Virus record (IMG/VR): IMGVR_UViG_3300037010_001286
Location: 18,149-82,148 of that record
Strand: one strand, 5' to 3'
Source of the DNA: a virus
DNA: 64,000 nt
Every line of letters begins with the position of its first letter. Position 1 is the stretch's first letter. The notes beneath the pieces are model-generated. The model had not been told where the DNA came from, ran no database searches, and saw nothing but the letters and a program-made list of their open reading frames with translations. This document shows, one piece after another, positions 16,543-49,556 of this stretch. Position numbers and translations under genes: made by a program.

Positions 16543-16610
16543 TCTTAAAGAAAACTGAAAGCCTATTTTACGAGGTTTCTTAGAGGTGTCCCAAGACCTA
16601 TTATTGTATT
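16543..16610. repeat. 68-bp direct repeat, copy 1 (copy 2 at 49489-49556)
   Basis: 65/68 identical to 49489-49556. Confidence 0.95.
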
Positions 16611-16692
16611 ACCCTCTAAGAACTTTAGAGAAATTTTCCTATAACTTTAAGGTTACTTTTAAGAAACTTTTTGTACAATATTACTTCTAAAT

Positions 16693-16700
16693 ACGATTAT
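16693..16700 (+). promoter_or_regulatory. Putative phage-sigma promoter -10 (ACGATTAT)
   Basis: Recurrent intergenic motif. Confidence 0.5.
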
Positions 16701-16710
16701 ATATATGAAG

Positions 16711-16804
16711 ATATTGTAGTGCCGTCCCAGGTACTTGTTAAACAATAGAGCCTTCTTTTGAAGGCACTACAATATGTTTATCTAGGATTGATAAGTACCT
16801 GGGA
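16711..16804 (+). ncRNA. Candidate pseudoknotted 5' leader of rep
   Basis: Interleaved stems 16711-16723/16763-16775 (13 bp) and 16725-16741/16788-16804 (17 bp, 2 G-U pairs). Confidence 0.55.
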
Positions 16805-16853
16805 AGCCTTGTTAATCTTCTTATAATCATAATTAAATCTGAATGGATTAACT

Positions 16854-17936
16854 ATGAATGAGAGTAAATTTCTTCTTACTTACTTAGATAAGTATCATAA
16901 AATTCAATGTTCAAATATAAAAACAGATAAATATACCTTTAAAAAAGCAGAAGAGGCACTTGAATTTAACTTTATTAGATTTGGTAACTCTTATTTTATT
17001 CCAGCTATTTCAATTGATATTGATTTTAAATCTGATATTTACCGAATAATTTATGACAATAACCTACCTGAACCTACTTTCGTAGTTCATACAGACCGTG
17101 GAACTCATATTCACTGGTTTTTAGAAGTTCCTATTAGTACAGCTAATAAATTCCAGTTAAATTATCTTAATAATCTTATTAATTATCTTCAAGGTCTATT
17201 TGGTGGTGATAAATATGCAACTACTAGAAGTGCTGGGCGTATTTGGAGAAATCCTATTAAGTTCCCTCATATTTTTTCAGGAAATCTTGTATCTTTTTCT
17301 GAATTTACCCTCCCAAAAAAAGAAAAAGTCCAACAAATTGACACTCAATATACTAGCAGAAATAAGTATAAAAAAATTTTAAATATAGATTTTACTAGTG
17401 TTATAGAGGGAACTCGTCACCATACTCTTTTTGAGTATGGACGTGCCTATGCTTATACTACTGGTATAACTAACCCACATGCAGAGATTGAAGCTAAAAA
17501 TGCTTTAATGCCAAATCCATTATCAACTATAGAGGTTAAATCAATAGGTAACTCTATAGATAAATTTATGACTACAAAATATAAAAAGAGTACATACAAT
17601 AGCTCTCAAAAAACAGTAGAATTTAATAGAAAGATAGCTAAAGTACAATCTGATAAGAAACTTACTGAGATAGTTAATAAAATACTTATAAGTATTTCTC
17701 CTATAACTTTAGCAAAAAACCTAACAGCTCGTAAAGCTGCTAAGGTACTTAATATAAGTAAAAATACTTGGACAAAATATGCAAAAGTATTGATTAGTTC
17801 TATTAAAGAGTCCTTACTAACTATAAAAGCTCCATTAAGATACTTACCAATTTCTACTAATTTATACGTAGAAAGAAGTATACCTATGTATAATACTATA
17901 TATTCTAGCAGTATAGTACTAAATAATTCAACATAA
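16854..17936 (+). CDS. Plasmid-type replication initiator (ColE2/pAL5000-like Replicase primase domain + PriCT-1 + HTH)
   Basis: SIDID, LPEPTFVV, RGTHIHWFL, RNP, GTRHHTLFEY, NPLSTIEVKSIGNSI. Confidence 0.8.
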   Translation: MNESKFLLTYLDKYHKIQCSNIKTDKYTFKKAEEALEFNFIRFGNSYFIPAISIDIDFKSDIYRIIYDNNLPEPTFVVHTDRGTHIHWFLEVPISTANKFQLNYLNNLINYLQGLFGGDKYATTRSAGRIWRNPIKFPHIFSGNLVSFSEFTLPKKEKVQQIDTQYTSRNKYKKILNIDFTSVIEGTRHHTLFEYGRAYAYTTGITNPHAEIEAKNALMPNPLSTIEVKSIGNSIDKFMTTKYKKSTYNSSQKTVEFNRKIAKVQSDKKLTEIVNKILISISPITLAKNLTARKAAKVLNISKNTWTKYAKVLISSIKESLLTIKAPLRYLPISTNLYVERSIPMYNTIYSSSIVLNNST

Positions 17937-17983
17937 TCTATACTCAATTGTATATAAAATAATTTTAAGGTGGTATCTATAAA

Positions 17984-18457
17984 GTGGTATTTATTGGAAT
18001 TGACTCTTCTTCTACCAATACAGCAATTGTTGTATTAGATTATAATAGAAATTTACTTGAGTTTACTCTTATTTCCCCTACAAATAAAGATTTAAGAGTT
18101 AGAGGTGCAGAAACTGTATCTTCAGTCCTATCATTTATTCAAAAATTTTCTACAAAAAGCTCTCAGATTGTTATAGAAGCTCCTGCATTTATGGCTAATG
18201 GAAAAGTAGCAGATTTAAGTATGATTGTTGGTGGAATTTTTTATGGATTGATAGATATAGGATATGATTGTTTATTAATTCCCCCATCACAACATAAAAG
18301 TCGTTTTACTGGAAGAGGAAGGATTACAAAAGGTGATACTATACTTTGCCTACCTGAGAGTGTTTTAAATAGTTTTAAAGGTACTTATAAGAAACTTGAT
18401 GATTTAGCAGATGCTTACTCTCTAGCTACATACTTATTACCAGCTACTTCTATCTAA
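17984..18457 (+). CDS. RuvC-like Holliday junction resolvase
   Basis: IGIDSS, VIE, TGRGRITK, DDLADA. Confidence 0.88.
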   Translation: MVFIGIDSSSTNTAIVVLDYNRNLLEFTLISPTNKDLRVRGAETVSSVLSFIQKFSTKSSQIVIEAPAFMANGKVADLSMIVGGIFYGLIDIGYDCLLIPPSQHKSRFTGRGRITKGDTILCLPESVLNSFKGTYKKLDDLADAYSLATYLLPATSI

Positions 18458-18523
18458 TCTTTTTACTATAAATTACCTTAGAATGATTTGTAACAATTTG
18501 TTGGAATAATGGAGTATCTAACT

Positions 18524-18544
18524 TAGAGGGATAATATCCCTCTA
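18524..18544. terminator. Hairpin between convergent transcription units
   Basis: tagagggat-aat-atccctcta. Confidence 0.55.
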
Positions 18545-18647
18545 TACTATCACTTTTTAGGTTTAGGTGTTTTACCTTTAGGTGCACAGGCCATATACTC
18601 TCCTTTACTTTATATTTAATAAAATATATTATATAAATATTTGCTTA

Positions 18648-19115
18648 TTAATTTATAGCAAAAAAGCTACCTCTTTTATCTTTGAACCACATTGCAAAAG
18701 CCATAAAATCAGGTGTTGTTATAGGCATTTTTGTACCATTACTAAATCTAATTATGGTATTTATAGTGGTATCTGTCAATGTATTTGTGAGTGTTGCAGC
18801 TATATAACCTACCGTTAGTGCAGTAATAGTAGACTGTGCATCTTCATCTAGTGGTACTTGGTATGTTACTCCGTTAAGAGTATAAGGTAATCCTATAGCT
18901 TTTAACTGTGATGAGGTTAGCTCAACAGGAGGTTTAGCAACCCATTTATTTCCATCAAATATATAATCATCAGATGGTTTATCAGGAATTAAAACATAAT
19001 CAGTATTGGGTCCAATAACTACTTCAGTAAGTTCTTGTGTATCCTCATCAAATACACTCTCTATCAGATTCGGTTGAGTTAGTGCAAAGTTTCCAGTTTT
19101 TTCATTATAGTACAT
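18648..19115 (-). CDS. Tail fibre assembly/chaperone-like protein (DUF4376-like)
   Basis: Position after fibre genes; PSDDYIFDGNKWV motif. Confidence 0.55.
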   Translation of the reverse strand: MYYNEKTGNFALTQPNLIESVFDEDTQELTEVVIGPNTDYVLIPDKPSDDYIFDGNKWVAKPPVELTSSQLKAIGLPYTLNGVTYQVPLDEDAQSTITALTVGYIAATLTNTLTDTTINTIIRFSNGTKMPITTPDFMAFAMWFKDKRGSFFAIN

Positions 19116-20191
19116 TATATGACCTCTACAGTATTAATTCTACACATCCAATGGATAGTAGTTGATGCAGCACCTGTTACAGATACTGATAAAGCCCCAT
19201 TTGTTGTATCTGCTGATATAGAAACAGCACTTGCTGTTATCCAACTCTCTGAATCACCAAATGTTAAGTTAATAGTAGGAGTTCCTACTAGAGTAGTAGA
19301 TGAGGCATTTGCACCACGTTTAATTAACCCAGTAGTATTCCACTGTCCTGCTTTACCTGTTCCAGTATTTATAGCAACTATTTCAATATCAAAGGAGACT
19401 GCATTATTATTTTGAAGTGTACATTGATTAGTTGCAGAAACTGCATTAGTGTCTGATTTTAATATAGTAGCTGTAGCGTCTGTTGTTATAGCACCAAGTC
19501 CGAGTTGACCAAGTTGATATGCGCCATTTATGCCACTGAAAGGTGTTCCAATTACTGCTCTACCTGATATACCATTTGTGTGACTTCTAAACCCCATTGC
19601 TATAGAAGCAGTACCTGAGGCTACGTTTGAGTAACCCATTGCTATAGAAGAACCCCCCGATGCAATATTATTATTCCCCATAGCTACAGATGCGAAATTA
19701 GATGATGTATTTGCGTACCCCAGCGATATAGAAGCAGTACTAGACGCAGTATTGTTGTATCCTATTGCCACAGAGGAGTAACTAGATGATGTATTTGCAT
19801 ATCCCATCGATATAGAAGCACTACCGGATGAAATACTATTATATCCAGTAACTATAGAATAAGGACCGGATGCTACTTGATTAGCACTGGTTCTATAAGT
19901 TTGCAAATCAATCGCACCAGTCCCTCTAACGTTTCCCCCTTTTGCTGTACCATCAGGAATATTAGTGGATAGAGCACCTGAGCCTACATATACCCCATTA
20001 TTATACATCATAGGCATTTGTAATATTAAATCAGTAGCAAACTGTGTACTACCATAGTTTACTTCATCATCGTTGGTACCTATAAGTACAGCATCTCTCA
20101 TCACCTGAGATGCACCTTGCCCTACTTTATAAGTTATCCTACTAGGACTTATGACAGCCCCGTAGCTATTTCCCTCAATTCCTGAGTTCAT
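19115..20191 (-). CDS. Tail fibre/adhesin with YadA-head-like 14-aa repeats
   Basis: Repeated SxxxSxAxGYxNxA units. Confidence 0.7.
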   Translation of the reverse strand: MNSGIEGNSYGAVISPSRITYKVGQGASQVMRDAVLIGTNDDEVNYGSTQFATDLILQMPMMYNNGVYVGSGALSTNIPDGTAKGGNVRGTGAIDLQTYRTSANQVASGPYSIVTGYNSISSGSASISMGYANTSSSYSSVAIGYNNTASSTASISLGYANTSSNFASVAMGNNNIASGGSSIAMGYSNVASGTASIAMGFRSHTNGISGRAVIGTPFSGINGAYQLGQLGLGAITTDATATILKSDTNAVSATNQCTLQNNNAVSFDIEIVAINTGTGKAGQWNTTGLIKRGANASSTTLVGTPTINLTFGDSESWITASAVSISADTTNGALSVSVTGAASTTIHWMCRINTVEVI

Positions 20192-20574
20192 TATAAGTTT
20201 CCTGCTCTAGTGATAATAATGTTAAATGATTCGGCATTTTGGGTTGAAAATTTCAATGACCATCCACTTTGTAGAACTATCCCTTTATTGCTTATAGGTT
20301 GAGACCAAGCTGGAACCGTTGCAGATGCTGTCACTGCTGATACAATAAGTTCTTGGATAAGATAGTTTGTAGTTCCATTAGATAAGAACATACGAACCAT
20401 TCCAGCAGTTGTATTACCAGTAGCAGTGATATACATATCATCTATCCGCATACCATTACCTGAGGCTGTGACAAGTGTTCCTAAGGTTCCTGACCCATCT
20501 CTATTAGAGTTAGCTGTTGATATATTTACTGCACCATTGATTGGTGTACTTGCATATTGTGGTGTTGTTGCCAT
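20191..20574 (-). CDS. Putative virion structural protein
   Basis: Thr/Ser/Gly-rich beta protein within the fibre cluster. Confidence 0.55.
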   Translation of the reverse strand: MATTPQYASTPINGAVNISTANSNRDGSGTLGTLVTASGNGMRIDDMYITATGNTTAGMVRMFLSNGTTNYLIQELIVSAVTASATVPAWSQPISNKGIVLQSGWSLKFSTQNAESFNIIITRAGNL

Positions 20575-22793
20575 TAAATTACTCCTATAAGTTGATTAAG
20601 TTGGTGATTTACTATTACTAAATCTGTTGAACCTAATAATGTATTTCCATTAACAGTTCTTATGTTTGTTCCGCTTACCAGTGTTGGTTGAAATGCTGTA
20701 CTATCTAAACCATCTAATAGATCGGCATTAAGGTTCGTGACTTTAGTTGTACTTGCTACTGTTAAAGGTGAAGTACCTGTTGCAACTGTCGAAATAAGTT
20801 GAGTTCCACTAATATTTGCAGGGAATGTAACGTTTTTGCTTCTATCATACGACTCGACATTTCTTCGTCCAGCAGGATAACCACCAAACCATTCGATATT
20901 TCCAAGTGTAATTGGGTTTGAGTTAATTGACACATTTGTAGAGTTAAAGGTAACACGTACTGCTTTTGATTTATCAGATGTTGAAGCAGAAGGATAATAA
21001 GCGAGTGTATTATGTGGAATATATACATGCCCTGGCCATACATTAACTGGACCCGATACTACCAAGTTCCATGAAGAATCAGCAGCATCTTGTTCCTCTA
21101 TCTTTATATAAATTGTATTTCCATTAGTATAAAGGTAAGCATAGAACTTATTAAGGTAAAAGTAATTATTTACTGCATTACTATCCCAAGTTATACGCCA
21201 TGAATTAGTAGAATTTGCTGGAATAATTGCTGGAAGTGCTGTTGAACCTTGACCTTCACCAATCATCATATCTGCAAGGTTATTTGCGGATACTCTAGTA
21301 CTTGTAGTCCATGTTGTACCGTCTGTAGACTCTTCTTGAATAGATGGTGGTATAAATCTAAACTTATTAGTCATTTCTCCGTGAATTAATGCCATTTCTT
21401 CAACAGATGGATTACCAAGATTATATGTTACTGTATTATTTGAAAAATTTACACCTGTATATGAACTTGCTGAAATTCTACCACTCCCATCTCTTATAAT
21501 AATGGTGTTTGCGTTATTCGTAGTTGAAGCAGTTACACCATTTAATGAAGTAGCGTTTACATTAGTAACTCCTGAACCATTACCACTGAAGTTAGTAGCA
21601 GTTACTGTTCCAGTAAAGGTTGGTGAAACTAGTGGTGCTCTACTTGTATCAATTGGGTGTATATGATCGGCTCTTGCTACTGTTGTACTAGTTCCTATTG
21701 TAGCTGTACCATCCATAGAAGGAAGCGTTGAACTTAGTGTTGTAATATTGTTAAAGCTTGTTCCTGTAGCTACACCTATATTTGGAGTAACTAGAGTTTT
21801 ATTTGATAAAGTTTCTATACCATCTAACGTAGCTAATTCTCCGGATATTGGGAGGGTAACTGTTGTATTTCCTGTTACTGTTAAAGTAGTATCAAAGGAG
21901 CCTGAAGTAGTTAAATTTCCACCAAGTGTAATAGTTTTACCATCATTGTTTACACCAGTTCCACCATTAGTTCCTAATACTATTCCAGTTACGTTACTAG
22001 CTGTACCTGTTGTATTTTGATTAAATATAGGAAAAGTACAATTTACTAAATTACCTGATGATGGAGTACCAAGATCAGGAGTAATTAAAGATGGAGAAAC
22101 TAATGGTGCTTTTAAATCAAGAGCTTCTTGAGTTACTATAGATATTGGTTTATTTAAATCACTAGTATTATCTACTAATCCCAATCCTACATCAGATTTA
22201 TCAAGAGTAATTTCACCAATCTTACCCGAAACACTAAGTACTTTTGGTTCTATTGAATCAATCCACTGTGCTTCTGTTCCTACAAAACCATTCTGTACGG
22301 CAATATCATATGTAGATAACCCAATAGGTCCAGTATCACCTTTAGGTCCTGCAGGTCCTTGTGGTCCAGTATCGCCTACAGGTCCTTGTGGTCCAATAGG
22401 TCCAATTGGTCCTTGTGGTCCAGTATCACCCTGTAGTCCTTGTGGTCCAATAGGTCCAGTATCACCTTTAGGTCCTTGTGGCCCAGTATCACCTTTAGGT
22501 CCTGCAGGTCCTTGTGACCCAGTATCACCTTTAGGTCCTTGTGGCCCAGTATCACCTTTAGGTCCTGCAGGTCCTTGTGACCCAGTATCACCTTTAGGTC
22601 CTGCAGGTCCTTGTGGTCCAGTATCACCCTGTAGTCCTTGTGGTCCAATAGGTCCAGTATCACCTTTAGGTCCAATAGGTCCAATTGGTCCTTGTGGCCC
22701 AGTATCGCCTTTAGGTCCTACAGGTCCTTGTACTCCTTGAGTACCAACAGGAGATAGTGTAATAGTATTTGTTTGTGTATTTAATGTTATCAC
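20574..22793 (-). CDS. Collagen-repeat tail fibre protein
   Basis: Long Gly-X-Y tract, then fibre motifs [35 protein letters not shown]. Confidence 0.85.
22320..22745 (-). repeat. Collagen Gly-X-Y coding tandem repeats
   Basis: 9/18/27-bp units encoding GPQ/GPK/GDT. Confidence 0.95.
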
Positions 22794-23098
22794 GGAGTTA
22801 CTCCTTTATGTATTATAAAGATACCACCAAATAAGAATTTATTATTATTTATATCAATCTCTAAAATAACATCATAATTAAAAATACCAACTCCTATAGA
22901 GGACATCTTATGAGCATTTATATTAATAATAAAAGTATTTTCACCTGTAATTATACAATAAGGAGATACATCAACTGAACCAATAAACATTTTTGGAATA
23001 CGTGAACCTATAGGTTCTCCTAAATCAACTGATAGACTAAAATCATCATTAGTTCTACCTGATAATGGAACATTAGTATCCTCATAATTCATTTGCAA
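22790..23098 (-). CDS. Small structural (BppU-like) protein
   Basis: YDV...[14 protein letters not shown]-terminal pattern; precedes the collagen fibre. Confidence 0.5.
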
Positions 23099-23346
23099 AC
23101 CTCTTTAGACGCTAGTAGCTTCTCTGCGTATTCTTTAACCATTTCATAATTCAATAAAGCCTTAGCTACAATATCGTGGCTATTTGTATAACTTTTATTA
23201 TCTATCATAGGTTTTTCTACATCAGGGGTTACACATTTTTGCGGTACATACACAATTTTAGGTTCAGGCTGTTCAGCTGTGCATCCATTAAAACTGATAA
23301 CTATTGAGATACTGCATAGAATCGTTACAATCGTTTGATGTTTCAT
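23089..23346 (-). CDS. Outer-membrane spanin (lipoprotein)
   Basis: Lipobox FNGC, Pro-rich, overlaps the i-spanin. Confidence 0.75.
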   Translation of the reverse strand: MKHQTIVTILCSISIVISFNGCTAEQPEPKIVYVPQKCVTPDVEKPMIDNKSYTNSHDIVAKALLNYEMVKEYAEKLLASKEVCK

Positions 23347-23644
23347 TTTTATCTCTCCATTTTTCTATTTCTATAGTTTTTGTTACGTACTTTGTATCTA
23401 TCTTATGTAACACAGTAGGTAATTTAGCCATAGATGCGTTATAATCCGCCTTATTTGCTAATATAATATCGTTCTGAATATGTAGATAAGCTTCACTTTC
23501 ATTTAATTTTACTTGTAAAGCTGAGTTATCCTTTTTAAGAGATAGTATTTCACTATTTAAATGTTCAATATACGAAAGTAAAACCCCAGTAATTAAAACA
23601 ATTACAACCTCTAACCAATACTGTTTAATTAATCCAATCCACAT
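23288..23644 (-). CDS. Inner-membrane spanin
   Basis: N-terminal TM helix plus coiled coil. Confidence 0.7.
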   Translation of the reverse strand: MWIGLIKQYWLEVVIVLITGVLLSYIEHLNSEILSLKKDNSALQVKLNESEAYLHIQNDIILANKADYNASMAKLPTVLHKIDTKYVTKTIEIEKWRDKNETSNDCNDSMQYLNSYQF

Positions 23645-23653
23645 TTTTTCTCC

Positions 23654-24229
23654 TTACCAATATTTAAATGTTTTGGATTCAACTTTTGCATATTGTGCTC
23701 CATATTTAAAAATATTTTGCGAATATTCATAGTTTATATCACAATTACTTCTACAAGTAGTAATCCCTTTATAGGTAAAACAACTTTTACCTCTATGGCA
23801 TTGCTCTTTAGCTTTACTCCATTCTGCTATCTTAGCACGACTAATCTCTTTAATAACTAAACCACCTCCGTTATATACCTGATAGGTTACCCATAGTCCG
23901 TATTGAGGTTTATATACTGATTTCATAATTACAGCTTGTGCTTTTAGCTGGTCGGGGATTGCAATTATACTTTTAATACCATTTGATTTTAAAGTTTTTT
24001 GCCAAACTCTATAAGTAATTTGGGGTAAACCCTCAGACCCAACACCATCACGAGATATTATATTTCGACATTCACTCTCTTGTTGAAGTTGTCCAACACC
24101 ATATTGGTAAGGAAAGTCTACTCCAAATTGAGAATAATGCGCTTTTCGTACTTCTTGAATATATAGCTCACATCTTTGTTGTGCATAAGAAAATGATATA
24201 ACTAAGATAAGAAGTACAAAAGCTTTCAT
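23654..24229 (-). CDS. Lytic transglycosylase (SLT-family) endolysin with signal peptide
   Basis: QQES catalytic Glu, GLPQI, YNGG; N-terminal signal sequence. Confidence 0.8.
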   Translation of the reverse strand: MKAFVLLILVISFSYAQQRCELYIQEVRKAHYSQFGVDFPYQYGVGQLQQESECRNIISRDGVGSEGLPQITYRVWQKTLKSNGIKSIIAIPDQLKAQAVIMKSVYKPQYGLWVTYQVYNGGGLVIKEISRAKIAEWSKAKEQCHRGKSCFTYKGITTCRSNCDINYEYSQNIFKYGAQYAKVESKTFKYW

Positions 24230-24504
24230 TACCCACCCATTGCAAAGCAGTAGATAATGATTACATAAAGTGCAATAACAACGCTTGTTAATTGCCAGTT
24301 ATCATCATTACTCCAATCAACTATTGGAAATAATGATTTTCTAATTATATGAGCAGTTAATACACCTGCTGTTACTAATAAGAACTTAGATAATACAAGC
24401 TGAATTATAGCTGGTAAACTCTCATAATAACCACTAACAAATACATATATTAATGATAAACTTACTACTAAAACAAACCCTACTCTTTTTAATTCTTTCA
24501 TCAT
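24229..24504 (-). CDS. Holin (3 TM)
   Basis: 91 aa, three hydrophobic segments, adjacent to the lysin. Confidence 0.7.
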   Translation of the reverse strand: MMKELKRVGFVLVVSLSLIYVFVSGYYESLPAIIQLVLSKFLLVTAGVLTAHIIRKSLFPIVDWSNDDNWQLTSVVIALYVIIIYCFAMGG

Positions 24505-24815
24505 ACGCTAACCTTTAAAATAAATGTCATAGCGGAGCCAATTACAGCTGTTATCAACATCCATACTATTTTACTTAAGTTCTTTTCTATATGTTCTATT
24601 CTTTCATTTTGTCTTTTAAAACTATCATGCTCTGTTATTACGTGTGATGTAAACTCTTGTCTTAATAGACGAATATCTGAAGCTATTTCATTCTGCTTTT
24701 CTATAGCTGTTTCTATCTTAGATAATGTTTTATTCATCTGAGTAAGCTCCCGACTTAGTAACAGATGCTCTCCTTCTAACTTTTGTACCCTAGGTGCTAT
24801 ATCAATATCAATCAT
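24501..24815 (-). CDS. Coiled-coil protein with C-terminal TM (XhlA/holin-like)
   Basis: Coiled coil followed by KIVWMLITAVIGSAM. Confidence 0.55.
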   Translation of the reverse strand: MIDIDIAPRVQKLEGEHLLLSRELTQMNKTLSKIETAIEKQNEIASDIRLLRQEFTSHVITEHDSFKRQNERIEHIEKNLSKIVWMLITAVIGSAMTFILKVSV

Positions 24816-25213
24816 TTTTTACCCTTCATTTCCACTAAATTAATCTTATCAGATGTATCTTTATTCCAGTGTGAACTACCAAAAATTCTAACTGCATAGT
24901 ATATAAGATACGTTCTAATTTTAGATACCCCATTAAATAAAAGCATCTCTTTCAACAACTTATCACAACTTTCTCTTTGTAATTGCATACAAGTATATAA
25001 CCCATCATGTATTATGGAAGGTTTCAATAAGTCATCTTCAAATGGGTTACCTATAATGTTCCAAAATAATTTAGGTATAGAAGCACCATCAGTTATAAAA
25101 CCTGATTTAATAGTAACTTTAATTGAATCATTTTCATAACCAAAATTATCTTGTAACTTCCAAAAACCATTTCCCATTTCTTCAAGGGATATATCACCAT
25201 TAAACTGTTTCAT
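24812..25213 (-). CDS. DUF1353 family protein
   Basis: GFITDGASIP, IIHDGLY, YYAVRIFG. Confidence 0.85.
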   Translation of the reverse strand: MKQFNGDISLEEMGNGFWKLQDNFGYENDSIKVTIKSGFITDGASIPKLFWNIIGNPFEDDLLKPSIIHDGLYTCMQLQRESCDKLLKEMLLFNGVSKIRTYLIYYAVRIFGSSHWNKDTSDKINLVEMKGKK

Positions 25214-25632
25214 TATGAAATTCTTATAAGTCCAGTAGTATCTGTTGGGTCAGGAAATTGTATCGTAAAATCTCCACCAGTTGTTGATATATCAGAACCA
25301 AAATCAAGAACACAAACAGCCGCATTATTTCTAGAACTATTATAAATTAATGCACCTCGTGAAGTAATAGTAACTGCCTGCCATCTAGGGTCTGTAGTAA
25401 AATCTAATATAGAAACATTATTTACAATAGAGGTACTAAAGCCTGATAAGGTAATACCTCCTGCCGTATATCCTGTTCCTGTTATTTCCCCATTAGTTGT
25501 ATAACTAGTAGTACTACTATCTAAAGTAGCATCACTGCTATATAGTGCAATCATATAGGTATCAGTTGATGTATGAATACCTGAATATAGCTCTTTTAAA
25601 TATGAGTCACATACTCCTGCTTTTATTGCCAT
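25213..25632 (-). CDS. Phage structural protein
   Basis: GTGYTAGG, ITSRGALIYN, VLDFGSD motifs typical of virion proteins. Confidence 0.65.
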   Translation of the reverse strand: MAIKAGVCDSYLKELYSGIHTSTDTYMIALYSSDATLDSSTTSYTTNGEITGTGYTAGGITLSGFSTSIVNNVSILDFTTDPRWQAVTITSRGALIYNSSRNNAAVCVLDFGSDISTTGGDFTIQFPDPTDTTGLIRIS

Positions 25633-25741
25633 AGATTATCCTTTAATTATGTGAGGTACTCTAACTACATAAGATATTAGTTTTGTTGTTATATAATTAA
25701 TTTACTAACTATAATAGCTTAAAAAGTTAATTTACATACCT

Positions 25742-25749
25742 ATAATCGT
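25742..25749 (-). promoter_or_regulatory. Putative late promoter -10 (ACGATTAT)
   Basis: Recurrent motif upstream of the lysis/fibre cluster. Confidence 0.55.
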
Positions 25750-25797
25750 ATTTACTTTTAGTTAAATTACGAAGTAATATTACATAACTATATATCA

Positions 25798-26199
25798 TTA
25801 ATATGAAGTTTGAAAATGAGTAACGTCAGGAGATTTAGTCCAAAAACCTCCCCATACGTTATTCTCATTTAAAGATTCCCAATACTCACCTATAGGTCTT
25901 AGTAGGTCAATATCATAAGTTAGATTAAACTCCTCAAAACCATCAGATAAAAAGAAGTTCAAGTCTATAGCAAGTCTCTTAAGGTGCTTAGAGGTTTTTG
26001 TAAATTCCTTCTTTTTACCTGGAATTAATTGTAGACCACTCTCTGTTTCTTCTAAGCTTTTTCCATGTAGATATAAAAGTTGTAACTCATAAGGTCTAAA
26101 GGTTTCCCCAAAAGATACCTTAAAACCTGTATTTTCAATATAACTTAATAAACTAATAACATCTTTGACAAAATTACATTGAGTCTTAATTATATTCAT
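25798..26199 (-). CDS. Peptidase M15 endolysin (L-Ala-D-Glu peptidase-like)
   Basis: GETFR, SKHLKRLAIDL, WGGFW...DVTHFQ. Confidence 0.85.
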   Translation of the reverse strand: MNIIKTQCNFVKDVISLLSYIENTGFKVSFGETFRPYELQLLYLHGKSLEETESGLQLIPGKKKEFTKTSKHLKRLAIDLNFFLSDGFEEFNLTYDIDLLRPIGEYWESLNENNVWGGFWTKSPDVTHFQTSY

Positions 26200-26208
26200 A
26201 ATATAACT

Positions 26209-26973
26209 CTATGACATTGCTAATGAAGGAAACATATGTACCTCAGTTGTACTTTTTACAAAGTATCTAAAGGTATCAACACTATTAGCAGCGGTAGATA
26301 ACACAGCTTTATTTCCTCCAGGAAATTTATATGCACTTCCCCAAGTTATTGTTCTAGAACCTGTAGAATCTTGTATTAGTATAATATGCCCGGATTCTCC
26401 AACTACTAACCCAGTTGGGTTAGCAAGTGTTATAGAGTTTGTCAAAGTAATTATATAATTATTATAAGTATTCATTGTAGGAGTATAGTTAGCTGACTTA
26501 GTAGCAGTTAGTGTAGTACCTACCCCTAAAAGAGCCTTATTAGTTACTGATGCATCAAACTGTTGCTTTGTTATTGGGTTCATTGCACTGGTAGCATCTC
26601 CATTAAGAGATAAAGATCCTGTTAAAGTACCACCACTTTGTTTAAGAAATGTACTATTTGCATCTGTTTGTTTAAGAAATGTACTATTTGCATCTGTTTG
26701 TTTAAGAAATGTGTTAGCTGCATCTGTTTGCGTAAGAAATGTACTATTTGCATCTGTTTGTTTAAGAAATATGTTAGCTGCATCTGTTTGCGTAAGAAAT
26801 GTACTATTTGCATCTGTTTGCGTAAGAAATGTACTATTTGCATCTATTTGTTTAAGAAATATACTATCTACTTCTATTCTCGAGTAAAGCTTACTAATAT
26901 TAGAGTTAATAATAAGTCTCCAGGCCGTTGCACCTACCTCTAGAGTTTCTAATCCATTTGCTAATACTGCCAT
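26209..26973 (-). CDS. Tail fibre protein with 10-aa tandem repeats
   Basis: FLKQTDANST x7; GGTLTGSL; C-terminal QDSTGSRTITW domain. Confidence 0.75.
   Translation of the reverse strand: MAVLANGLETLEVGATAWRLIINSNISKLYSRIEVDSIFLKQIDANSTFLTQTDANSTFLTQTDAANIFLKQTDANSTFLTQTDAANTFLKQTDANSTFLKQTDANSTFLKQSGGTLTGSLSLNGDATSAMNPITKQQFDASVTNKALLGVGTTLTATKSANYTPTMNTYNNYIITLTNSITLANPTGLVVGESGHIILIQDSTGSRTITWGSAYKFPGGNKAVLSTAANSVDTFRYFVKSTTEVHMFPSLAMS
26638..26860 (-). repeat. 30-bp coding tandem repeat (~7.4 copies)
   Basis: gtttaagaaatgtactatttgcatctgttt units, no spacers. Confidence 0.95.
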
Positions 26974-26995
26974 TTAATTCTCCTTATGTTATTTT

Positions 26996-27003
26996 ATAAT
27001 CGT
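26996..27003 (-). promoter_or_regulatory. Putative late promoter -10 (ACGATTAT)
   Basis: Recurrent motif. Confidence 0.55.
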
Positions 27004-29138: not shown

Positions 29139-29147
29139 TTTACTTCC

Positions 29148-30124: not shown

Positions 30125-30136
30125 CTTATTTAATCC

Positions 30137-35268: not shown

Positions 35269-35277
35269 GTTTACTCC

Positions 35278-41514: not shown

Positions 41515-41544
41515 TATTAGCCTTTACTCGTAAGTTACTCTTAT

Positions 41545-41552
41545 ATAATCGT
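41545..41552 (-). promoter_or_regulatory. Putative late promoter -10 (ACGATTAT)
   Basis: Recurrent motif upstream of the tape measure gene. Confidence 0.55.
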
Positions 41553-41558
41553 TATCGC

Positions 41559-42654: not shown

Positions 42655-42705
42655 AATTTCTCCTTAATTTAATCAAAAGTAGAGGGTATAGAACCCTCAA
42701 TTAGT

Positions 42706-43734: not shown

Positions 43735-43766
43735 GTAATGTCCTTTGAGATTAGTATGTCATTCTT

Positions 43767-43774
43767 ATTATCGT
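43767..43774 (-). promoter_or_regulatory. Putative late promoter -10 (ACGATAAT)
   Basis: Recurrent motif upstream of the major tail gene. Confidence 0.6.
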
Positions 43775-43792
43775 AGAGTATCTAAAATAGTG

Positions 43793-44203
43793 TTAAACAA
43801 GCCGTTTTATGTATCTAATTTGTAATTGTAATTGAGCAATTGAATATGGCATTAGAAGGCCTCCGTCTCTTTTAAAAGAAGTTATCATTCCCTCAACACA
43901 ATTAGTCTTAATATATGTATTAGCTTCAATAACTCCTTGAGTTACTTCAACTAAATCTGACAAGTTATCTTCTGTATTAGACCCACGTTGTTTATTATAT
44001 ATATAAATAGGAATATTTGCAGAAATAAATGCTTTACTATTAGTAAGATTTTCTCTATTTACAGTGTCACTTTCATAAACAATAGCTATAGCAGGAAACT
44101 CTTTAATATCAGTCCATACTGGGATAATATTTTTATATACTTTTTTGAACTGTCTAGTATTTTCTAAATCCACACAAATCGCATCTATAACTTCTGTTCT
44201 CAT
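43793..44203 (-). CDS. Tail terminator protein
   Basis: EFPAIAI motif; position. Confidence 0.65.
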   Translation of the reverse strand: MRTEVIDAICVDLENTRQFKKVYKNIIPVWTDIKEFPAIAIVYESDTVNRENLTNSKAFISANIPIYIYNKQRGSNTEDNLSDLVEVTQGVIEANTYIKTNCVEGMITSFKRDGGLLMPYSIAQLQLQIRYIKRLV

Positions 44204-44736
44204 AGTTGACCTCTCATTAAAATTAAATCATCTAATATATCATGCATCGATGGTATTTCCTTACCACTCTCATCTAAAAACCTCTCAATATCTGTTCGTT
44301 TTAACATAGCTTTATCCATCCAATTCTCCCAGCTAGGAGTAGTTCCATCTTTTCTTTTTGGAGAACCATTATTAGTATATTCAGCATAGTCTAATTTTTG
44401 TCCATTAGCAATACCAACACTAGCAACAATACTAATAATACGTTTTGTTTCTGAAGTATTAAATCTTGATGTAACATCCGCTCTAATAGTATCTCTAAGG
44501 CTTGGTTTATTACCGCCATTAAAGTGAGGAGCATCAGAGTCATCAGGGCGTTGTTTATGTTGTTTTATAATATTTTCAGCAGCAGGAACAGATAGTTTCT
44601 TATAAAGTTCTTTCTTCCATTTTGTTACCTCTTCATTTGCAATAATTCCAAAATTTTTTGCAATATCATCTGTTATCTTATTTAAGCTAAGAATAAAATG
44701 TTTAGCTAATTTATAAGAAGTACCAGGGGTAAACAT
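44200..44736 (-). CDS. Tail completion / neck protein
   Basis: DYAEY motif; position. Confidence 0.55.
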   Translation of the reverse strand: MFTPGTSYKLAKHFILSLNKITDDIAKNFGIIANEEVTKWKKELYKKLSVPAAENIIKQHKQRPDDSDAPHFNGGNKPSLRDTIRADVTSRFNTSETKRIISIVASVGIANGQKLDYAEYTNNGSPKRKDGTTPSWENWMDKAMLKRTDIERFLDESGKEIPSMHDILDDLILMRGQL

Positions 44737-44738
44737 AA

Positions 44739-45284
44739 TTAAAGCTTAAATATTTTAAATGCTTGAAGGGTTGTATCAGTTAAGTAAGAAATTTTATCTA
44801 CTGGTCTAACTGATTGTTTAATATCTGAAGATACCATAGAGAAATTTTCTAAGTTCTTAGTAATATCTGTATACATTTTTTTACCAATAGAAAACATAGC
44901 ATTTAATAAACTAGGAGGAATATCAGTATAATTTGTAAAACCTACACTGTAAGTAATAATAATATTATCTACACCAGTAGGAAAAGTATTATCAGGAATA
45001 TAAATACTGTTTCCAGTTGTTATAATACTTGATATATCTAAAGCTACACCACCTACTATAATAGAGTTTACACTTGTAATTCTACCTTTTGTAGTATAAA
45101 GTTTTTTAGAATTTTTGCCATCATGATATTCTACAAGAGTACGTGGGTTTATAGAAATATCGTAGGTATTATAGATATAGTCTTCAACTTGAGCAAGTAG
45201 TTGAGAAGCAAAAGAAATAATTTCAACATCTTCCCCGGAAATATCTAAATACTGAATGAAATAGGCAATTAACTCCGGGGTCAT
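44739..45284 (-). CDS. Head-tail connector / head completion protein
   Basis: ITYSVGF...IPPSL; position after the capsid gene. Confidence 0.75.
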   Translation of the reverse strand: MTPELIAYFIQYLDISGEDVEIISFASQLLAQVEDYIYNTYDISINPRTLVEYHDGKNSKKLYTTKGRITSVNSIIVGGVALDISSIITTGNSIYIPDNTFPTGVDNIIITYSVGFTNYTDIPPSLLNAMFSIGKKMYTDITKNLENFSMVSSDIKQSVRPVDKISYLTDTTLQAFKIFKL

Positions 45285-45296
45285 ATATAATCCTTA

Positions 45297-45497
45297 TTAC
45301 TTTTTAGTAAATTTATCTTCTTCTGTTACATCTTCCACTTTATCTTTAGTAGCTTTTACTGTTTTAACTTCAGAAAAAACCTCAGGAAATGTATTTAAAA
45401 GATACTTAGCATCTTTGTCAGCAACTGTGTATTGACAACCAGTAACAAAATCAATATCAACAGCTGTAATACCTTTACCAGTAAATAATAATTCCAT
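45297..45497 (-). CDS. Small hypothetical virion protein
   Basis: AAGGA RBS; follows the capsid gene. Confidence 0.6.
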   Translation of the reverse strand: MELLFTGKGITAVDIDFVTGCQYTVADKDAKYLLNTFPEVFSEVKTVKATKDKVEDVTEEDKFTKK

Positions 45498-45558
45498 TTA
45501 TATTCCTTAAATCTTAACTCAGACATGATGCACATGCCTCGGCTAAAATAAAAAGAAA

Positions 45559-45576
45559 GAGTGGGAATACCCACTC
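45559..45576 (-). terminator. Intrinsic terminator after the capsid gene
   Basis: gagtggg-tatt-cccactc followed by tttctttt on the minus strand. Confidence 0.75.
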
Positions 45577-45581
45577 AGTTC

Positions 45582-46781
45582 TTAAAGATTTACAACTGCA
45601 ACTACAGGAGTAGCAACAACTGAAAGTTTTTTGAAGTCAAGATCACGGTAACCAACATAAAGAGTTGAACTTGAAACAGCTTTACGCTCTTCTTCAAGAC
45701 CAACTGCTCCACGGTCAGCAATACCGAAGAAACGTTTATTAACAACAAGTACCGCAGTTTTAGTTCCAGGAGTAGTAGTATCAACTACACCAAGAGCAGT
45801 CAAGTTACTAGGGATATAAGCAGAAGCAACGATTGGCATACCATATAGTTTACCGATTTCTCCAGTAAGAATAGTAGCAGCTTGACCATATTTATCAACT
45901 GTCATAACCTCAGGGATAGCCAACATATCATAAGCAACATTGACAGGTGCAATAATAGCAAGGTCTGTCAAATTCAACCCATAAACTCCAAGTTTCTTAC
46001 GAGCAGCAAGTACTACTGCTGCAGTAATTTTAGCAGCACCACCATCAACAGTCATACCAGCAGATACAGCCATTTTTAGCAATCCGTCAAATGCTTTACG
46101 AACATCATTAGCATTAGTAAAAGTAGTATCACCAGCAATAATGCCTTGTTCAGAAGCACGAGCCAATGATTGTGACAATTCTTGTTTTACCAAATCCATA
46201 ACTGCAACTACAGCATCTTGGTCAGCTTGGTCTGTAACACTTACAAGTGTTTTGATACGATTAGTAGCAAAAGTTACTTTCCCAGCAGCAATTGTTGACT
46301 CAATAGCATCTGCACCAGGAGCAATCAAGTATGCAGTAGCATCAGTAGTACGACCAGGAATACTAAATTGGTTGCGATTAGCAGGCATTTGTAATTTAGA
46401 AAACAACGGCTCAATCATCAACTCAGCTTCAAGCATAGTCAACATCTGACCACTAAATTCTTCAGCCAACCAACTAGAAATATCAGCAGGAACAAGAGCT
46501 TTTTCAACTAATCCAGCTACCTCTTTATACTCTGCAAAAGATGATGCAGGGCGACCTGTTAGAATAGATTTAAGATGAAGATTAGCTCCAATTTCTTTAG
46601 CTTTAGCAATTTCTTTATCAGAAACTACGGTGTCATCAAACGATGTTTTACGCTCAGATAGTACACCAAGCTCTTTATGTAGCTCTTCTAGTTGTTTTTC
46701 AGAAGCAGATTTTGTTTCTGCTAGTTCAAGTTTAAGAGTTTCTAACTCTTTTGCCATTTTATCAAAAGCTTCGATTGCCAT
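45582..46781 (-). CDS. Major capsid protein (HK97 fold, N-terminal scaffolding delta domain)
   Basis: Coiled-coil N-terminus; TILTGEIGKLYGMPIV; GYRDLDF. Confidence 0.9.
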   Translation of the reverse strand: MAIEAFDKMAKELETLKLELAETKSASEKQLEELHKELGVLSERKTSFDDTVVSDKEIAKAKEIGANLHLKSILTGRPASSFAEYKEVAGLVEKALVPADISSWLAEEFSGQMLTMLEAELMIEPLFSKLQMPANRNQFSIPGRTTDATAYLIAPGADAIESTIAAGKVTFATNRIKTLVSVTDQADQDAVVAVMDLVKQELSQSLARASEQGIIAGDTTFTNANDVRKAFDGLLKMAVSAGMTVDGGAAKITAAVVLAARKKLGVYGLNLTDLAIIAPVNVAYDMLAIPEVMTVDKYGQAATILTGEIGKLYGMPIVASAYIPSNLTALGVVDTTTPGTKTAVLVVNKRFFGIADRGAVGLEEERKAVSSSTLYVGYRDLDFKKLSVVATPVVAVVNL

Positions 46782-46793
46782 TATGGAATCTCC

Positions 46794-47990
46794 TTAATAT
46801 TTTAAATGTGAATTTACTGTTAAATCAATTGCTTGACGTAGCTTAAGTAAATTATCAATATAATCGTCTGTAGCCTCAGAACTCGCTACATAAGACAAAA
46901 CCTGCTCAAAAGAAAGAACATTAGGTAGTTGACCTTCATCCTCAGCCTTTTTGGAATCATCGCCCTCAGCATTTTGGATGTTAATTTCGTTACCATCTTC
47001 ATCAGTTAGTGGTGTATCAAGAGTATTATCGTCTATTTCTTTTTCAACTGTCTCTAAGTCTAAAATAAATTTAGTAATATCTTCAGGAACTTCCTCAATT
47101 ACTTTAATTTCTACCATTTCTTCATAGTGTTTTAGAAGATGTTTTGCAGCTAAAATCTTAGTTTCTTTACTATATACTAACTCATCTTGGACACTTTTAA
47201 GTGCAGCAAATGCAGATTGGACTCCACCTTTACTTACAATAAGTTTACCCTCAATAAACTCGTGATGAGGGAATTTCCAAGAACTTTTCTTTTCAAGGTC
47301 TCCTACAACTAAATAAGCTTCCTCAATCACCTCTTTAGTGGCATCAGAACTAATAGTATCAAGAAGGATAGATTTGTCTACTTCATTCCAACGTTTATTA
47401 GATATTTCTTTATTTTTAATTTTTTTAGCACAAGAAAGGGTATGAGTACTAGTAGCTTTACTTGCTAGTAAACAACTACCGTTAGCACAAGGAGATTGTG
47501 TTAGAGTAGTAAAAATAGAATCTTGATTATCCGGTACTGCTACAATAGAAACCTCTAAAAGCTCAACAGATTTATAGTAGTAAATGTCAGCTAAGGCATC
47601 ATAAACACTATCAAGTGGCTTAAATCCTATAGAAAGTGTTTTTAATATACGATTTTTAACAGCATAATATACTTTTTCATTAAGAACTTGGTGGACTTCT
47701 GCAGTAATCTCTAGTCCATCTAGTGTTACATTAATGTCAATAACTTTACCAACAGGTTCTTGATTATCATGGTAAGATAATAGAATTGGGTTTTTCTTAA
47801 AATTATCTAAGTTATACCCACTAGGAAGAACTGAATCTCCACTACGGTCTACAACAACTTGACCGTTATCATCAAGGAATCTATTAGCAAACCCCTTAAT
47901 ATAAATAATGTCTGCGTTATTAGGACTACCAGGAGTACCTAAATCCTTAACAATCTCTAAGTCGTTCATTACTAATGTTAGTTTATCCAT
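46794..47990 (-). CDS. Prohead protease (HK97/U35) with extra C-terminal domain
   Basis: NPILLSYH, LSIGF, LLEVSIVAVPDN. Confidence 0.9.
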   Translation of the reverse strand: MDKLTLVMNDLEIVKDLGTPGSPNNADIIYIKGFANRFLDDNGQVVVDRSGDSVLPSGYNLDNFKKNPILLSYHDNQEPVGKVIDINVTLDGLEITAEVHQVLNEKVYYAVKNRILKTLSIGFKPLDSVYDALADIYYYKSVELLEVSIVAVPDNQDSIFTTLTQSPCANGSCLLASKATSTHTLSCAKKIKNKEISNKRWNEVDKSILLDTISSDATKEVIEEAYLVVGDLEKKSSWKFPHHEFIEGKLIVSKGGVQSAFAALKSVQDELVYSKETKILAAKHLLKHYEEMVEIKVIEEVPEDITKFILDLETVEKEIDDNTLDTPLTDEDGNEINIQNAEGDDSKKAEDEGQLPNVLSFEQVLSYVASSEATDDYIDNLLKLRQAIDLTVNSHLKY

Positions 47991-48031
47991 TAATAGTCCC
48001 TTTTAAACTTTCTTTTAATATATATATTAAG

Positions 48032-48039
48032 ATTATCGT
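48032..48039 (-). promoter_or_regulatory. Putative late promoter -10 (ACGATAAT)
   Basis: Recurrent motif upstream of protease/capsid. Confidence 0.6.
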
Positions 48040-48063
48040 TAATAATCACTATGAGTGTGTATA

Positions 48064-49416
48064 TTACGGTGCTGGCGGAGTTACAGCACCATTAGAAGCT
48101 CCTCCAGTTGGATTTGTACTTCCTGAACCACCAGTAGATGGAGCTGTTCCAACCCCTGAAAGTGAAGCACCATCTTGTACATATGTTGCACCAGTACCAA
48201 ATAAGTAAGCTGCAAGAATATTCTTATCTGCATTATCAACTGCTACTTTTGGTAATCCAATCATATTACGACCCTCATTAAGTGTTGCAAGACCAGTAGC
48301 ATATAAAGTTTTTGCAGCCTCAGCACGTACATCTAAACTAGTTTCAAGCTCTACAACTCTATCTAAATCAAAGGTGAAAGATAATCTAGGGTTCTTATAC
48401 TTACCACGTAAGAAAAGAGTAATAGAGTCCTCTAATTTATATAAGTAAGGACGTACAGCAGTATTAAAGACTACTTTCATCAAATCTTGAGGTTTTGATG
48501 TTGAAGTATTTTCACCCCCAAGTACTAATGCGTTAAGTTTAAATACACGAAGAACTCTTTTATCACTAATATGTAAAGAATCAAGTAACTTTGAGTCGTG
48601 AGGGGATACCTGAATTGGTTTATATGTAATTCCCCCTGGAAGTACAGCAGTACCACCTCTATTAACTCCACCTTGTCCATACATCATAGCGAACTGGTCT
48701 TGAAGTGCACTTACTTGTTCAGGGCTGAGAGCATATTCAGACTCTAATAATCCTGTAAGTAGACTTGAATTTGCATAGAAACTCTTTAAGTCCTCTAACG
48801 CATAACCCTCAAGTAATAGAGTATCAAATAGAGGTCGTACAGCAGGAACTCCATAGTACATATTATTAAGAGTAGGATTTCTTACAATACATACCTCATC
48901 ATAATTATAAGTAATTTTATCTTTCCAAATAACACCTTTAATATAATTACTAGGGTCAGGAACTATTTTAACAGAAGATGGAGAACCTAAAAACCAAGAT
49001 TCAAGATTTCCTTTATTAGTTTCAAGAGTCATAAAAGAAGTACCTGATAGTAGAATAGCTTGAATATTTAGCTCAATCAACTCACCCCAAGTAAAGAATG
49101 GATTTGGGGATTGAACCCAAGCATTTAGTTTATCTTTTTTTGGTAAAGGTAAAAGTTCTCCAGTATCACTAAGTACTCCAATTTTTGGTACTGCTTGACT
49201 GGCTGCTTTTGTAATATAATCAACACAACTAAATATTAACTCACTAGTATGTAAAGTATTTTCCTCAGAGAGTTTTGCTAAACTACCTTTACCACCATCA
49301 TAACTCTTAGCAGCTTCAGCATTATTTCTACTAGCTTTAGTATTAACGAAAACAGAAGTACCTACATTGTTATTAGATTTATTTTCTTTCTTTGAGAAAA
49401 AATTAAAAATTCCCAC
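48064..49416 (-). CDS. Portal protein (HK97 family)
   Basis: PNPFFT, YYGVPAV, TLNEGR; likely GTG start at 49416 after AAGGGGGG. Confidence 0.9.
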   Translation of the reverse strand: MGIFNFFSKKENKSNNNVGTSVFVNTKASRNNAEAAKSYDGGKGSLAKLSEENTLHTSELIFSCVDYITKAASQAVPKIGVLSDTGELLPLPKKDKLNAWVQSPNPFFTWGELIELNIQAILLSGTSFMTLETNKGNLESWFLGSPSSVKIVPDPSNYIKGVIWKDKITYNYDEVCIVRNPTLNNMYYGVPAVRPLFDTLLLEGYALEDLKSFYANSSLLTGLLESEYALSPEQVSALQDQFAMMYGQGGVNRGGTAVLPGGITYKPIQVSPHDSKLLDSLHISDKRVLRVFKLNALVLGGENTSTSKPQDLMKVVFNTAVRPYLYKLEDSITLFLRGKYKNPRLSFTFDLDRVVELETSLDVRAEAAKTLYATGLATLNEGRNMIGLPKVAVDNADKNILAAYLFGTGATYVQDGASLSGVGTAPSTGGSGSTNPTGGASNGAVTPPAP

Positions 49417-49449
49417 TAGACCCCCCTTGGAGTATACATCAATTAACTT

Positions 49450-49457
49450 ATTATCGT
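49450..49457 (-). promoter_or_regulatory. Putative late promoter -10 (ACGATAAT)
   Basis: Recurrent motif upstream of the portal gene. Confidence 0.6.
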
Positions 49458-49488
49458 CAAAGTAAGAAAATAAGTAATTTTTACATTT

Positions 49489-49556
49489 TCTTAAAGAAAA
49501 CTGAAAGCCTATTTTACGAGGTTTCATAAGGGTGTCCCAAGACCTATTATTGTATT
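49489..49556. repeat. 68-bp direct repeat, copy 2
   Basis: 65/68 identical to 16543-16610. Confidence 0.95.

Follow-up and report, generated by a model that had tools for sequence, protein, structure and literature searches.

A dispersed intergenic element found alongside a predicted ColE2-type Rep gene in distant relatives of T5-like phages

The 64,000-nucleotide stretch analysed here (the window) covers bases 18149-82148 of the 82,148-bp IMG/VR phage record IMGVR_UViG_3300037010_001286 (G000), which comes from microbial-mat metagenomes, and it carries two copies of a 68-bp direct repeat, one of them next to a gene (rep) for a putative plasmid-type replication initiator. These repeats are two of the four copies of a dispersed intergenic element with a core of about 28 bp. 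An initial annotation of the window had taken them, in the first place, for the possible ends of an excisable, self-replicating circle; since the element exists in four copies and its core travels with the rep gene, it is more likely that the repeats mark the site of action of Rep. The core is tentatively read here as a recognition, priming or origin site for Rep, a reading to which we assign somewhat less than an even chance. The phages thus carry, in a T5-like lineage, a multi-copy site that is conserved in position and linked to an initiator-primase of plasmid type. To our knowledge, no replication origin has been defined by its sequence for most large virulent phages, among them T5 and its relatives.

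Four copies of an element with an asymmetric core

The pair of repeats described in the initial annotation is real. Copy A (16543-16610 in the window, genome 34691) and copy B (49489-49556, genome 67637), both on the plus strand and 32,946 bp apart, are identical at 65 of 68 positions; the matches form exact stretches of 37, 2 and 26 nt, with a variable spacer of 5 nt. The similarity extends to 119 nt at 80% in a repeat search, and BLAST aligns the pair at 91.7% over 84 nt. Searches with 18-19-mers of the core, allowing up to four mismatches, gave no match in any of five genome shuffles, and a chance origin of the repeat is therefore excluded. The map of open reading frames (ORFs) also bears out the location of both copies at the only two minus-to-plus strand switches in the window (16500/16854 and 49416/49658), i.e., at the divergent junctions of flap endonuclease (FEN) with rep and of portal with terminase, and the content of the enclosed interval, in which Rep-like, RuvC-like resolvase, tail, capsid, protease and portal genes are found. 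The pair is not unique, however, as the whole record holds four copies, the third and fourth lying outside the window. Copy C (genome 11070-11137) is full-length and inverted, with 65/68 identity to copy A, and copy D (genome 6682-6749) is partial (46/68), its right-hand 26 nt being nearly intact. Each of these two lies between co-directional plus-strand genes, and all four copies fall within the roughly 7.4% of the genome that is non-coding in our ORF map.

Two halves can be distinguished in the element. The asymmetric core is the only part of the repeat conserved across related genomes; it occupies 16585..16614 in copy A, where the minus strand reads GGGTAATACAATAATAGGTCTTGGGACACC and was aligned with 19 further sites (G001, G002, G003, G009 and G010), and 49531..49560, also on the minus strand, in copy B. 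It is about 28 bp long and non-palindromic, with a consensus of roughly rGtAAACa..TGATAGGTCTTrGGACACC on the strand pointing away from rep. The AT-rich left half (16543..16579 in copy A) consists of a weak hairpin (GAAAGCCT / AGGTTTC, with the loop ATTTTACG) and a T/A tract, and makes the repeat 68-75 bp long in this genome, where it is conserved; it is partly conserved in G001 and G002, and its distance from the core is variable. In copies C and D the hairpin is placed where the upstream gene could be terminated. A 10-bp perfect inverted repeat (16577-16586 / 16613-16622) encloses the core of copy A and forms a stem in both the minimum-energy and the centroid folds; around the core of copies B and C it is only about 5 bp long. 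A structured RNA family was considered and rejected, as single-strand folds of the repeat were no better than those of shuffles (z -0.9 to -1.6) and no Rfam match at E up to 1 was obtained for the four repeat loci.

The core in related phages

No match to the DNA of either junction was present among 50,697 cultured-phage records, and exact-core scans of IMG/VR found a single close relative. A 15-mer scan of metagenome contigs gave more than 118 matches, none of which, among the matches listed, extended past 19 nt; the two 19-nt matches (L051, an unrelated phage-like contig, and L089) are at chance level. A search based on the portal protein, by contrast, retrieved 21 related IMG/VR loci and one far more distant (23% identity). 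The closest relative, G001 (88% portal identity), has the element at its portal junction with 84.5% identity over 84 nt, and its site differs from the core of copy B at one of 14 positions in the centre. In G002 and G003 (~70% identity) only the ~28-bp core is kept, at the same junctions as in this genome.

G002 (89.7 kb) has five exact copies of the core, namely an inverted pair at the portal/terminase junction, one at FEN/rep, one C-type and one D-type, and G003 (83.4 kb) has four, namely a tandem pair at the portal junction, one at FEN/rep and one D-type. The D-type copy stands upstream of the same gene of about 700 aa, in the same orientation, in G000, G002 and G003. Four copies of a recognisably homologous core occur in G010 (53% portal identity), and an inverted core pair and one weaker site in G009 (43% portal identity), so that the core-like sites number four in G000, five in G002, four in G003, four in G010 and two to three in G009. 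A core profile was made from 20 sites (17 of the 20 counted ones; the weak third site of G009 was left out and the G001 site added), and it matched nothing else below E 2 in nine genomes. Eighteen of the 20 counted sites lie between called ORFs, the exceptions (G010 53543 and G009 52726) being within short, possibly spurious ORF calls. Ten are at divergent junctions and eight between co-directional genes, where three point with the genes and five against them. Inverted sites make up one of four in G000, two of five in G002, one of four in G010 and one of two to three in G009. Copies within one genome are more alike than orthologous copies between genomes, which indicates that the copies evolve in concert; two copies in G010 are 100% identical over 79 nt. 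A variant core was also seen at the portal junction of four further contigs (L127, L128, L129 and L132), with both flanks kept (AATACAATAATAGG ... GACACC) and a different middle hexamer; these contigs end before the rep region.

The rep gene and its link to the core

The gene beside copy A (16854..17936, plus strand) is predicted to encode a ColE2-type Rep, an initiator-primase combining an AEP/Replicase domain, PriCT-1 and a probable helix-turn-helix (HTH), and it is the candidate reader of the core. The Replicase family PF03090 matches 11 of 16 Rep homologues (best E 3e-7), the window Rep itself scoring below the curated cut-off (E 0.0083), and PriCT_1 (PF08708) matches 13 of the 16 (best E 1.4e-9). 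The profile of these 16 sequences matches PDB 3vw4_A (molecule name 'Rep') at E 1.3e-6 over the PriCT-1 region, an entry that we take to be the DNA-binding domain of ColE2-P9 Rep. A crystal structure of that domain has been described (PMC4980987). The residues D55, D57, H85, H87 and D119, which correspond to AEP motifs I-III (hhhDhD, sxH and hD, respectively, as defined in PMC5862659), are invariant in the 16 sequences, and the alignment contains a conserved stretch R-x(7)-ISK(N/D/S). For the C-terminal HTH, weak single-member matches were obtained (E 0.01-0.08). A protein atlas also points to a ColE2-type Rep. No Rep homologue was detectable among cultured phages (INPHARED), and two scans of genome contigs for Rep relatives found nothing. 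Three of the homologues, P0055, P0064 and P0066, are encoded on contigs of 87,219, 87,673 and 78,366 bp. Similarity to plasmid proteins is weak (22.6% identity, E 2e-3 to 4e-3) and concerns a 'replication initiation protein' of 4.7-kb Acinetobacter plasmids and PriCT proteins of Priestia plasmids.

The distribution of the core among the relatives follows that of rep. Besides this genome, rep is present in G002, G003, G009 and G010, and it is absent from G006, G007 and G008, which are complete genomes with direct terminal repeats. Core-like sites were found only in the five genomes encoding the ColE2-type Rep, among the genomes scanned; the complete Rep-less G006 and G007, on which the scan of Rep-less relatives was made (it did not cover G008), have none. 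Out of the 119 ORFs of this genome, three are present in all four Rep-encoding relatives and in neither of these Rep-less ones. One is rep, the only non-structural gene that shares the distribution of the core; the other two belong to the structural block, and divergence may be the sole cause of their absence. RuvC, the sigma factor and the late-type motif resembling CGAT(A/T)AT all persist in the Rep-less relatives, whereas the core does not.

Position supports the same link. Each of the five Rep-encoding genomes has a core some 130-240 nt upstream of rep, and it is always the same end of this core that faces away from the gene. The most telling case is G009, in which rep and FEN are 8 kb apart and the core pair stands beside rep, while core profile and pattern searches found no site near the FEN, portal or terminase starts.

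Proposed Rep-dependent initiation at the core

The results obtained here are that Rep can be assigned to its family, that gene and core co-occur and are adjacent, and that the core next to rep keeps a constant orientation. Binding, unwinding and priming by Rep at the core, as well as origin activity, are inferred by analogy with ColE2 and can be arranged in the following model. Rep, in which the AEP primase, PriCT-1 and a probable HTH are combined in one protein, would bind the asymmetric core, melt the adjacent duplex and synthesise a short primer for extension by the phage family-A DNA polymerase, after which the phage DnaB-like helicase and DnaG-like primase would take over. All of these partners are encoded in the genome (DNA_pol_A, DnaB_C and a DnaG-type primase), the polymerase at window 2994-5567. 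Three to five fixed Rep-dependent starts could thus exist, one of them preceding rep and others located at the portal/terminase junction and in the early region. The mixed orientation of the core relative to transcription, with an inverted core pair in each of G002 and G009, is counted in favour of a site for Rep. Of the possibilities raised in the initial annotation, that of Rep-binding origins therefore fares best, on the grounds of co-occurrence and adjacency, and it is held here with the reservation expressed above.

It can be further proposed, with slightly less confidence than for the function of the core, that a lineage of uncultured, distantly T5-like virulent phages acquired a plasmid initiator-primase of ColE2 type, that the cognate ~28-bp site was multiplied to occupy three to five conserved positions, that replication, or a late mode of it, proceeds from several Rep-primed origins, and that gene and sites are gained and lost together. 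If this is correct, then sequence-defined initiation sites would be available together with the protein that reads them and could be studied with no more than a small protein, a 28-bp site and a family-A polymerase, and the smallest known plasmid origin system would be able to spread across a phage chromosome.

Several observations weigh against this proposal. Each of the 20 sites is found at an operon boundary, in intergenic DNA that bears promoters, a placement that a regulatory site explains equally well, and rep is located behind a late-type motif (ACGATTAT, 16693..16700, plus strand, 161 nt upstream of rep and outside the repeat), which would be an odd time of expression for an initiator. 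The co-occurrence rests on few independent lineages, since G006, G007 and G008 form one clade; G010 is a 57.5-kb fragment; and the sites of G009 are weak, with E values of 0.0015 and 0.005 against a profile that includes them. ColE2 has a single origin at or just after the 3' end of rep (PMC5304414), containing two direct CAGATAA repeats (PMC3632715). In the phages, on the contrary, the nearest core is upstream of rep in five of five genomes, the core is present in two to five copies per genome, and CAGATAA is absent from both strands of the 68-mers; it is likewise absent from the 2,427 nt of one of the plasmids matched by Rep. Finally, the Rep-less relatives carry a different dispersed repeat at comparable junctions. 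This family (G006 and G007; L176-L185) is 150-300 bp long, has at least eight copies in G006, and combines a late-type motif with a hairpin and three palindromes of the form AACACCTGnnnTGGGTGTT; a copy is also situated between RuvC and FEN, the place of rep in this phage. The phage family is therefore able to make intergenic cassettes without Rep.

A possible transcription-control cassette and other rival explanations

The main rival of a Rep site is that the element is a repeated transcription-control cassette, in which the core serves as an operator or activator site for a phage or host regulator, possibly Rep itself. The initial annotation had offered a shared operator for the two divergent promoter pairs as one of its alternatives. 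In such a cassette the hairpin and T-tract would act as a terminator or insulator, a sigma70-like promoter would read out of the element in this genome, and the FEN/sigma operon, the portal or terminase operons and two early-region operons would be co-ordinated. We regard this as possible, at roughly one chance in three, and part of the evidence fits it. The spacers bear promoter-like sequences and, as described above, the sites are almost all intergenic, half of them at divergent junctions. Every copy in this genome, and that of G001, contains the pair TTGGGA-N18-TAAAAT with a variable spacer, directed towards FEN, portal and the gene following copy C. One core copy of G002 lies about 35 nt upstream of a consensus TTGACA-N17-TATAAT, and the portal copies of G003 are just upstream of ACGATTAT, about 28 nt after the core. 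The position of the hairpin in copies C and D and the repeat family of the Rep-less relatives, which begins with the late-type motif and occupies similar junctions, point the same way.

However, these promoter-like features are not constant. The -35/-10 pair is not conserved, as the hairpin motif TAAAATAGG of G002 is about 29 nt from TTGGGA or absent, and the TTGGGA hexamer is replaced in the L127-type relatives; since G002, G003 and the L127 type have lost either the hexamer or the spacing, the pair does not qualify as a sigma70-type promoter. A promoter scan scored TTGGGA-N18-TAAAAT at 9/12, which is no better than the matches in shuffles. Neither a fixed distance between the core and the nearest -10-like box nor a single promoter class is observed, and the orientation of the core relative to transcription is mixed (three with and five against, as given above). 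In G000, G002 and G003 alike, the putative promoter of the D-type copy reads into the 3' end of the gene that precedes it. Among the 119 ORFs compared, none for a regulator has the distribution of the core. The core was also considered as a promoter of sigma-28/ECF type; this was rejected because no more than about 10 nt separate its AAAC and GTCTT blocks and because genomes without the core still have the sigma gene. If the element is a control cassette, then the finding is an ordinary one. Neither this explanation nor that of a Rep site accounts for the AT-rich half with its hairpin. This half may serve for unwinding or helicase entry, or it may be a terminator-like hairpin of unrelated nature that gene conversion has spread along with the core.

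Another explanation, which we consider improbable, is that the cores are recognised for the introduction of localized single-strand interruptions (nicks) such as those present in T5-like, phiKMV-like and tf-like phages. T5 has five major nicks and a 20-nt nick consensus is described for phiKMV-like phages; putative nickase sites are similarly placed among relatives in the LUZ24 group, and for tf it has been proposed that nickase and site co-evolve (PMC3517423). The phage is a distant T5 relative, and three to five position-conserved sites are present per genome, which speaks for this explanation. The localized nick sites, whose function is described as unknown, are restricted to one strand (PMC3517423), whereas inverted copies of the core occur in four of five genomes. 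In addition, the core does not resemble the T5 nick consensus quoted in that paper, and its distribution follows a primase-type gene rather than a nuclease.

The weakest of these explanations, and the one put first in the initial annotation, is that a crossover between copies A and B releases a 33-kb circle with rep, ruvC and the virion genes. Copies A and B are indeed direct repeats with long exact runs, G002 and G003 likewise have their A-type and B-type copies in direct orientation, and the likeness of copies within a genome shows that some sequence has been exchanged over evolutionary time. Yet two of the four copies (C and D) stand at unrelated promoters and one of the four is inverted, the stretch shared in G003 measures only 32-49 nt, RuvC is also found in relatives without the repeat, and the circle would be without terminase, polymerase, helicase and primase. 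Tyrosine and serine recombinases (PF00589 and PF00239) were absent from a six-frame search of the genome in which the positive controls worked. The search for junctions and a coverage step suggested in the initial annotation was made with two microbial-mat DNA runs, as contigs only, against window 7000-26900, which includes copy A only; no RNA run was listed among the sequencing runs containing the phage. Among the matches listed there was no joint or loose end at copy A and no coverage step, a weak test, since contigs hide rare junctions and the 37-nt exact repeat breaks contigs made at k=31; excision is thereby neither proven nor disproven. The depth in run X1 was about 34-39 to the left of copy A and about 33 to the right, and the bin at the repeat was raised, as expected when other copies map there. 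Taken together, excision of the circle appears highly improbable. Concerted sequence exchange is all that remains of it, and whichever of the other readings holds, the idea of a self-replicating 33-kb subgenomic circle should be dropped. A pac or cos role, raised since the terminase operon always has a copy close to it, was rejected on account of the three to five copies and because the records have their ends at other places.

Neighbouring genes and other features of the genome

The terminase and capsid of the phage are 24-29% identical to those of Demerecviridae, and together with the gene block FEN-dNMP kinase-SbcD-SbcC this identifies it as a distant relative of T5-like phages. Apart from the replication proteins named in the model, a ligase, ribonucleotide reductase and a sigma factor are encoded. 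The predicted flap endonuclease (5'-3' exonuclease; 15589..16500, minus strand) is the first gene of an operon with dNMP kinase, SbcD, SbcC and the sigma factor, and the RuvC-like Holliday junction resolvase (17984..18457, plus strand; phrog_159, 1.6e-17) is co-oriented with rep. The portal gene occupies 48064..49416 on the minus strand. As listed, its ORF begins at ATG 49527, inside copy B; GTG 49416 is most likely the real start, because of the strong Shine-Dalgarno sequence AAGGGGGG, the lengths of homologues (446-458 aa, with 52 of them clustering around 446-470 aa) and the closest relative, which is out of frame upstream. Across the divergent junction, the terminase operon is headed by a small ORF. 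Skew of GC tracks gene orientation, so that replication and transcription are not separable by it.

Late-type motifs also flank copy B, outside the repeat: ACGATAAT is found at 49626..49633 (plus strand), 32 nt upstream of the small ORF heading the terminase operon, and at 49450..49457 (minus strand), between the copy and the portal start. ACGAT(A/T)AT occurs 15 times genome-wide, 13 times co-oriented with local genes and many times 20-50 nt before start codons of the late region; examples in the window are at 16693, 25749, 27003, 41552, 43774, 48039, 49457, 49626 and 61748. This distribution is compatible with a promoter for the putative phage sigma factor (window 10415-10978), and an CCGATATAAT-like motif is kept in the Rep-less relatives.

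The record ends in a 116-bp exact terminal repeat. Around these ends (window 63874-64000 and genome 1-127), TTGACA-N17-TATACT, a consensus sigma70-type promoter within a 45-nt exact repeat, is present four times inside the terminal repeat. The terminal repeats of this genome and of G006 and G007 measure only 116-127 bp; that of G002 (L159-L163) is 3,047 bp long with 99.97% identity and resembles the long terminal repeats of T5. In the rep leader (16702-16784) there is a 25-nt inverted repeat (84% complementary), as well as a terminator-like hairpin on the minus strand (16765-16750); in ColE2, rep is controlled by an antisense RNA against the rep leader (PMC5304414). Internal repeats were also noted in the window, namely periodic repeats of 9/27 nt (22330-22758) within a 739-aa collagen-like tail-fibre gene and a 30-nt tandem array of nine copies (26577-26936) within a 254-aa ORF at 26209-26973. 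Metagenome depth was higher over 18.3-24.3 kb, probably owing to related tail-fibre genes of other phages. The gene of about 700 aa downstream of copy D (genome 6811-8895) has an N-terminus that resembles, by eye only, a GHKL-type ATPase.

Comparison with known systems

The closest parallel is offered by ColE2-P9 and ColE3, class C theta replicons whose Rep shares its architecture, an AEP 'Replicase' domain followed by PriCT-1, with the phage protein, in which an HTH is probable as well (PMC3632715, PMC5862659). ColE2 Rep binds a very small origin, opens it via PriCT-1 and the HTH, and primes DNA polymerase I (PMC4980987, PMC5304414, PMC5862659, PMC3632715); for replication in vitro, Rep, the origin, Pol I and SSB suffice (PMC4980987). 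The candidate phage site is similarly short (~30 bp) and non-palindromic, and a family-A polymerase is at hand to extend a primer. Unlike a small plasmid, the host replicon is an ~82-kb phage of virulent type with its own DnaB-like helicase and DnaG-like primase. The ColE2 primer is AGA (PMC5304414), and the GTCTT block of the core, invariant in four of five genomes (GTTTT in G009), contains TCT, a possible template for it, although a 3-nt match carries no weight. The core and the ColE2 origin were compared by their described features. As the hallmarks of the ColE2 origin are missing from the core, the phage system may at most work like the ColE2 origin family and is not a member of it.

In RSF1010, the primase RepB' reads ssiA and ssiB, and in the satellite phage P4 the alpha protein reads ori and crr. 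These systems share with the one proposed here a single element-encoded primase-type initiator and repeated, separate sites, including inverted pairs (G002 and G009). Their sites lie in one origin region or a few kb apart, whereas the phage cores are spread, at conserved positions, over tens of kb. In that respect virulent phages with multiple origins are closer. T4 has oriA, oriE, oriF and oriG, and multiple origins of T5 have been seen by electron microscopy; we know of no T5 origin sequence. As in these phages, the proposed initiation regions would be several, fixed and located in promoter-bearing intergenic DNA. The T4 origins depend on transcripts made by RNA polymerase and are not known to involve a dedicated sequence-specific primase.

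Two further kinds of phage site resemble the element in arrangement. The nick sites of T5, phiKMV-like, tf and LUZ24-like phages are also few per genome, conserved and similarly positioned among relatives, and differ in being strictly confined to one strand and in having a consensus unlike the core (PMC3517423). Promoter and operator cassettes of phages share with the element the intergenic place at operon starts and the homogenisation within a genome. Unlike in such cassettes, the orientation of the core and its spacing to promoters are not constant, and its distribution among the relatives follows rep rather than the sigma factor.

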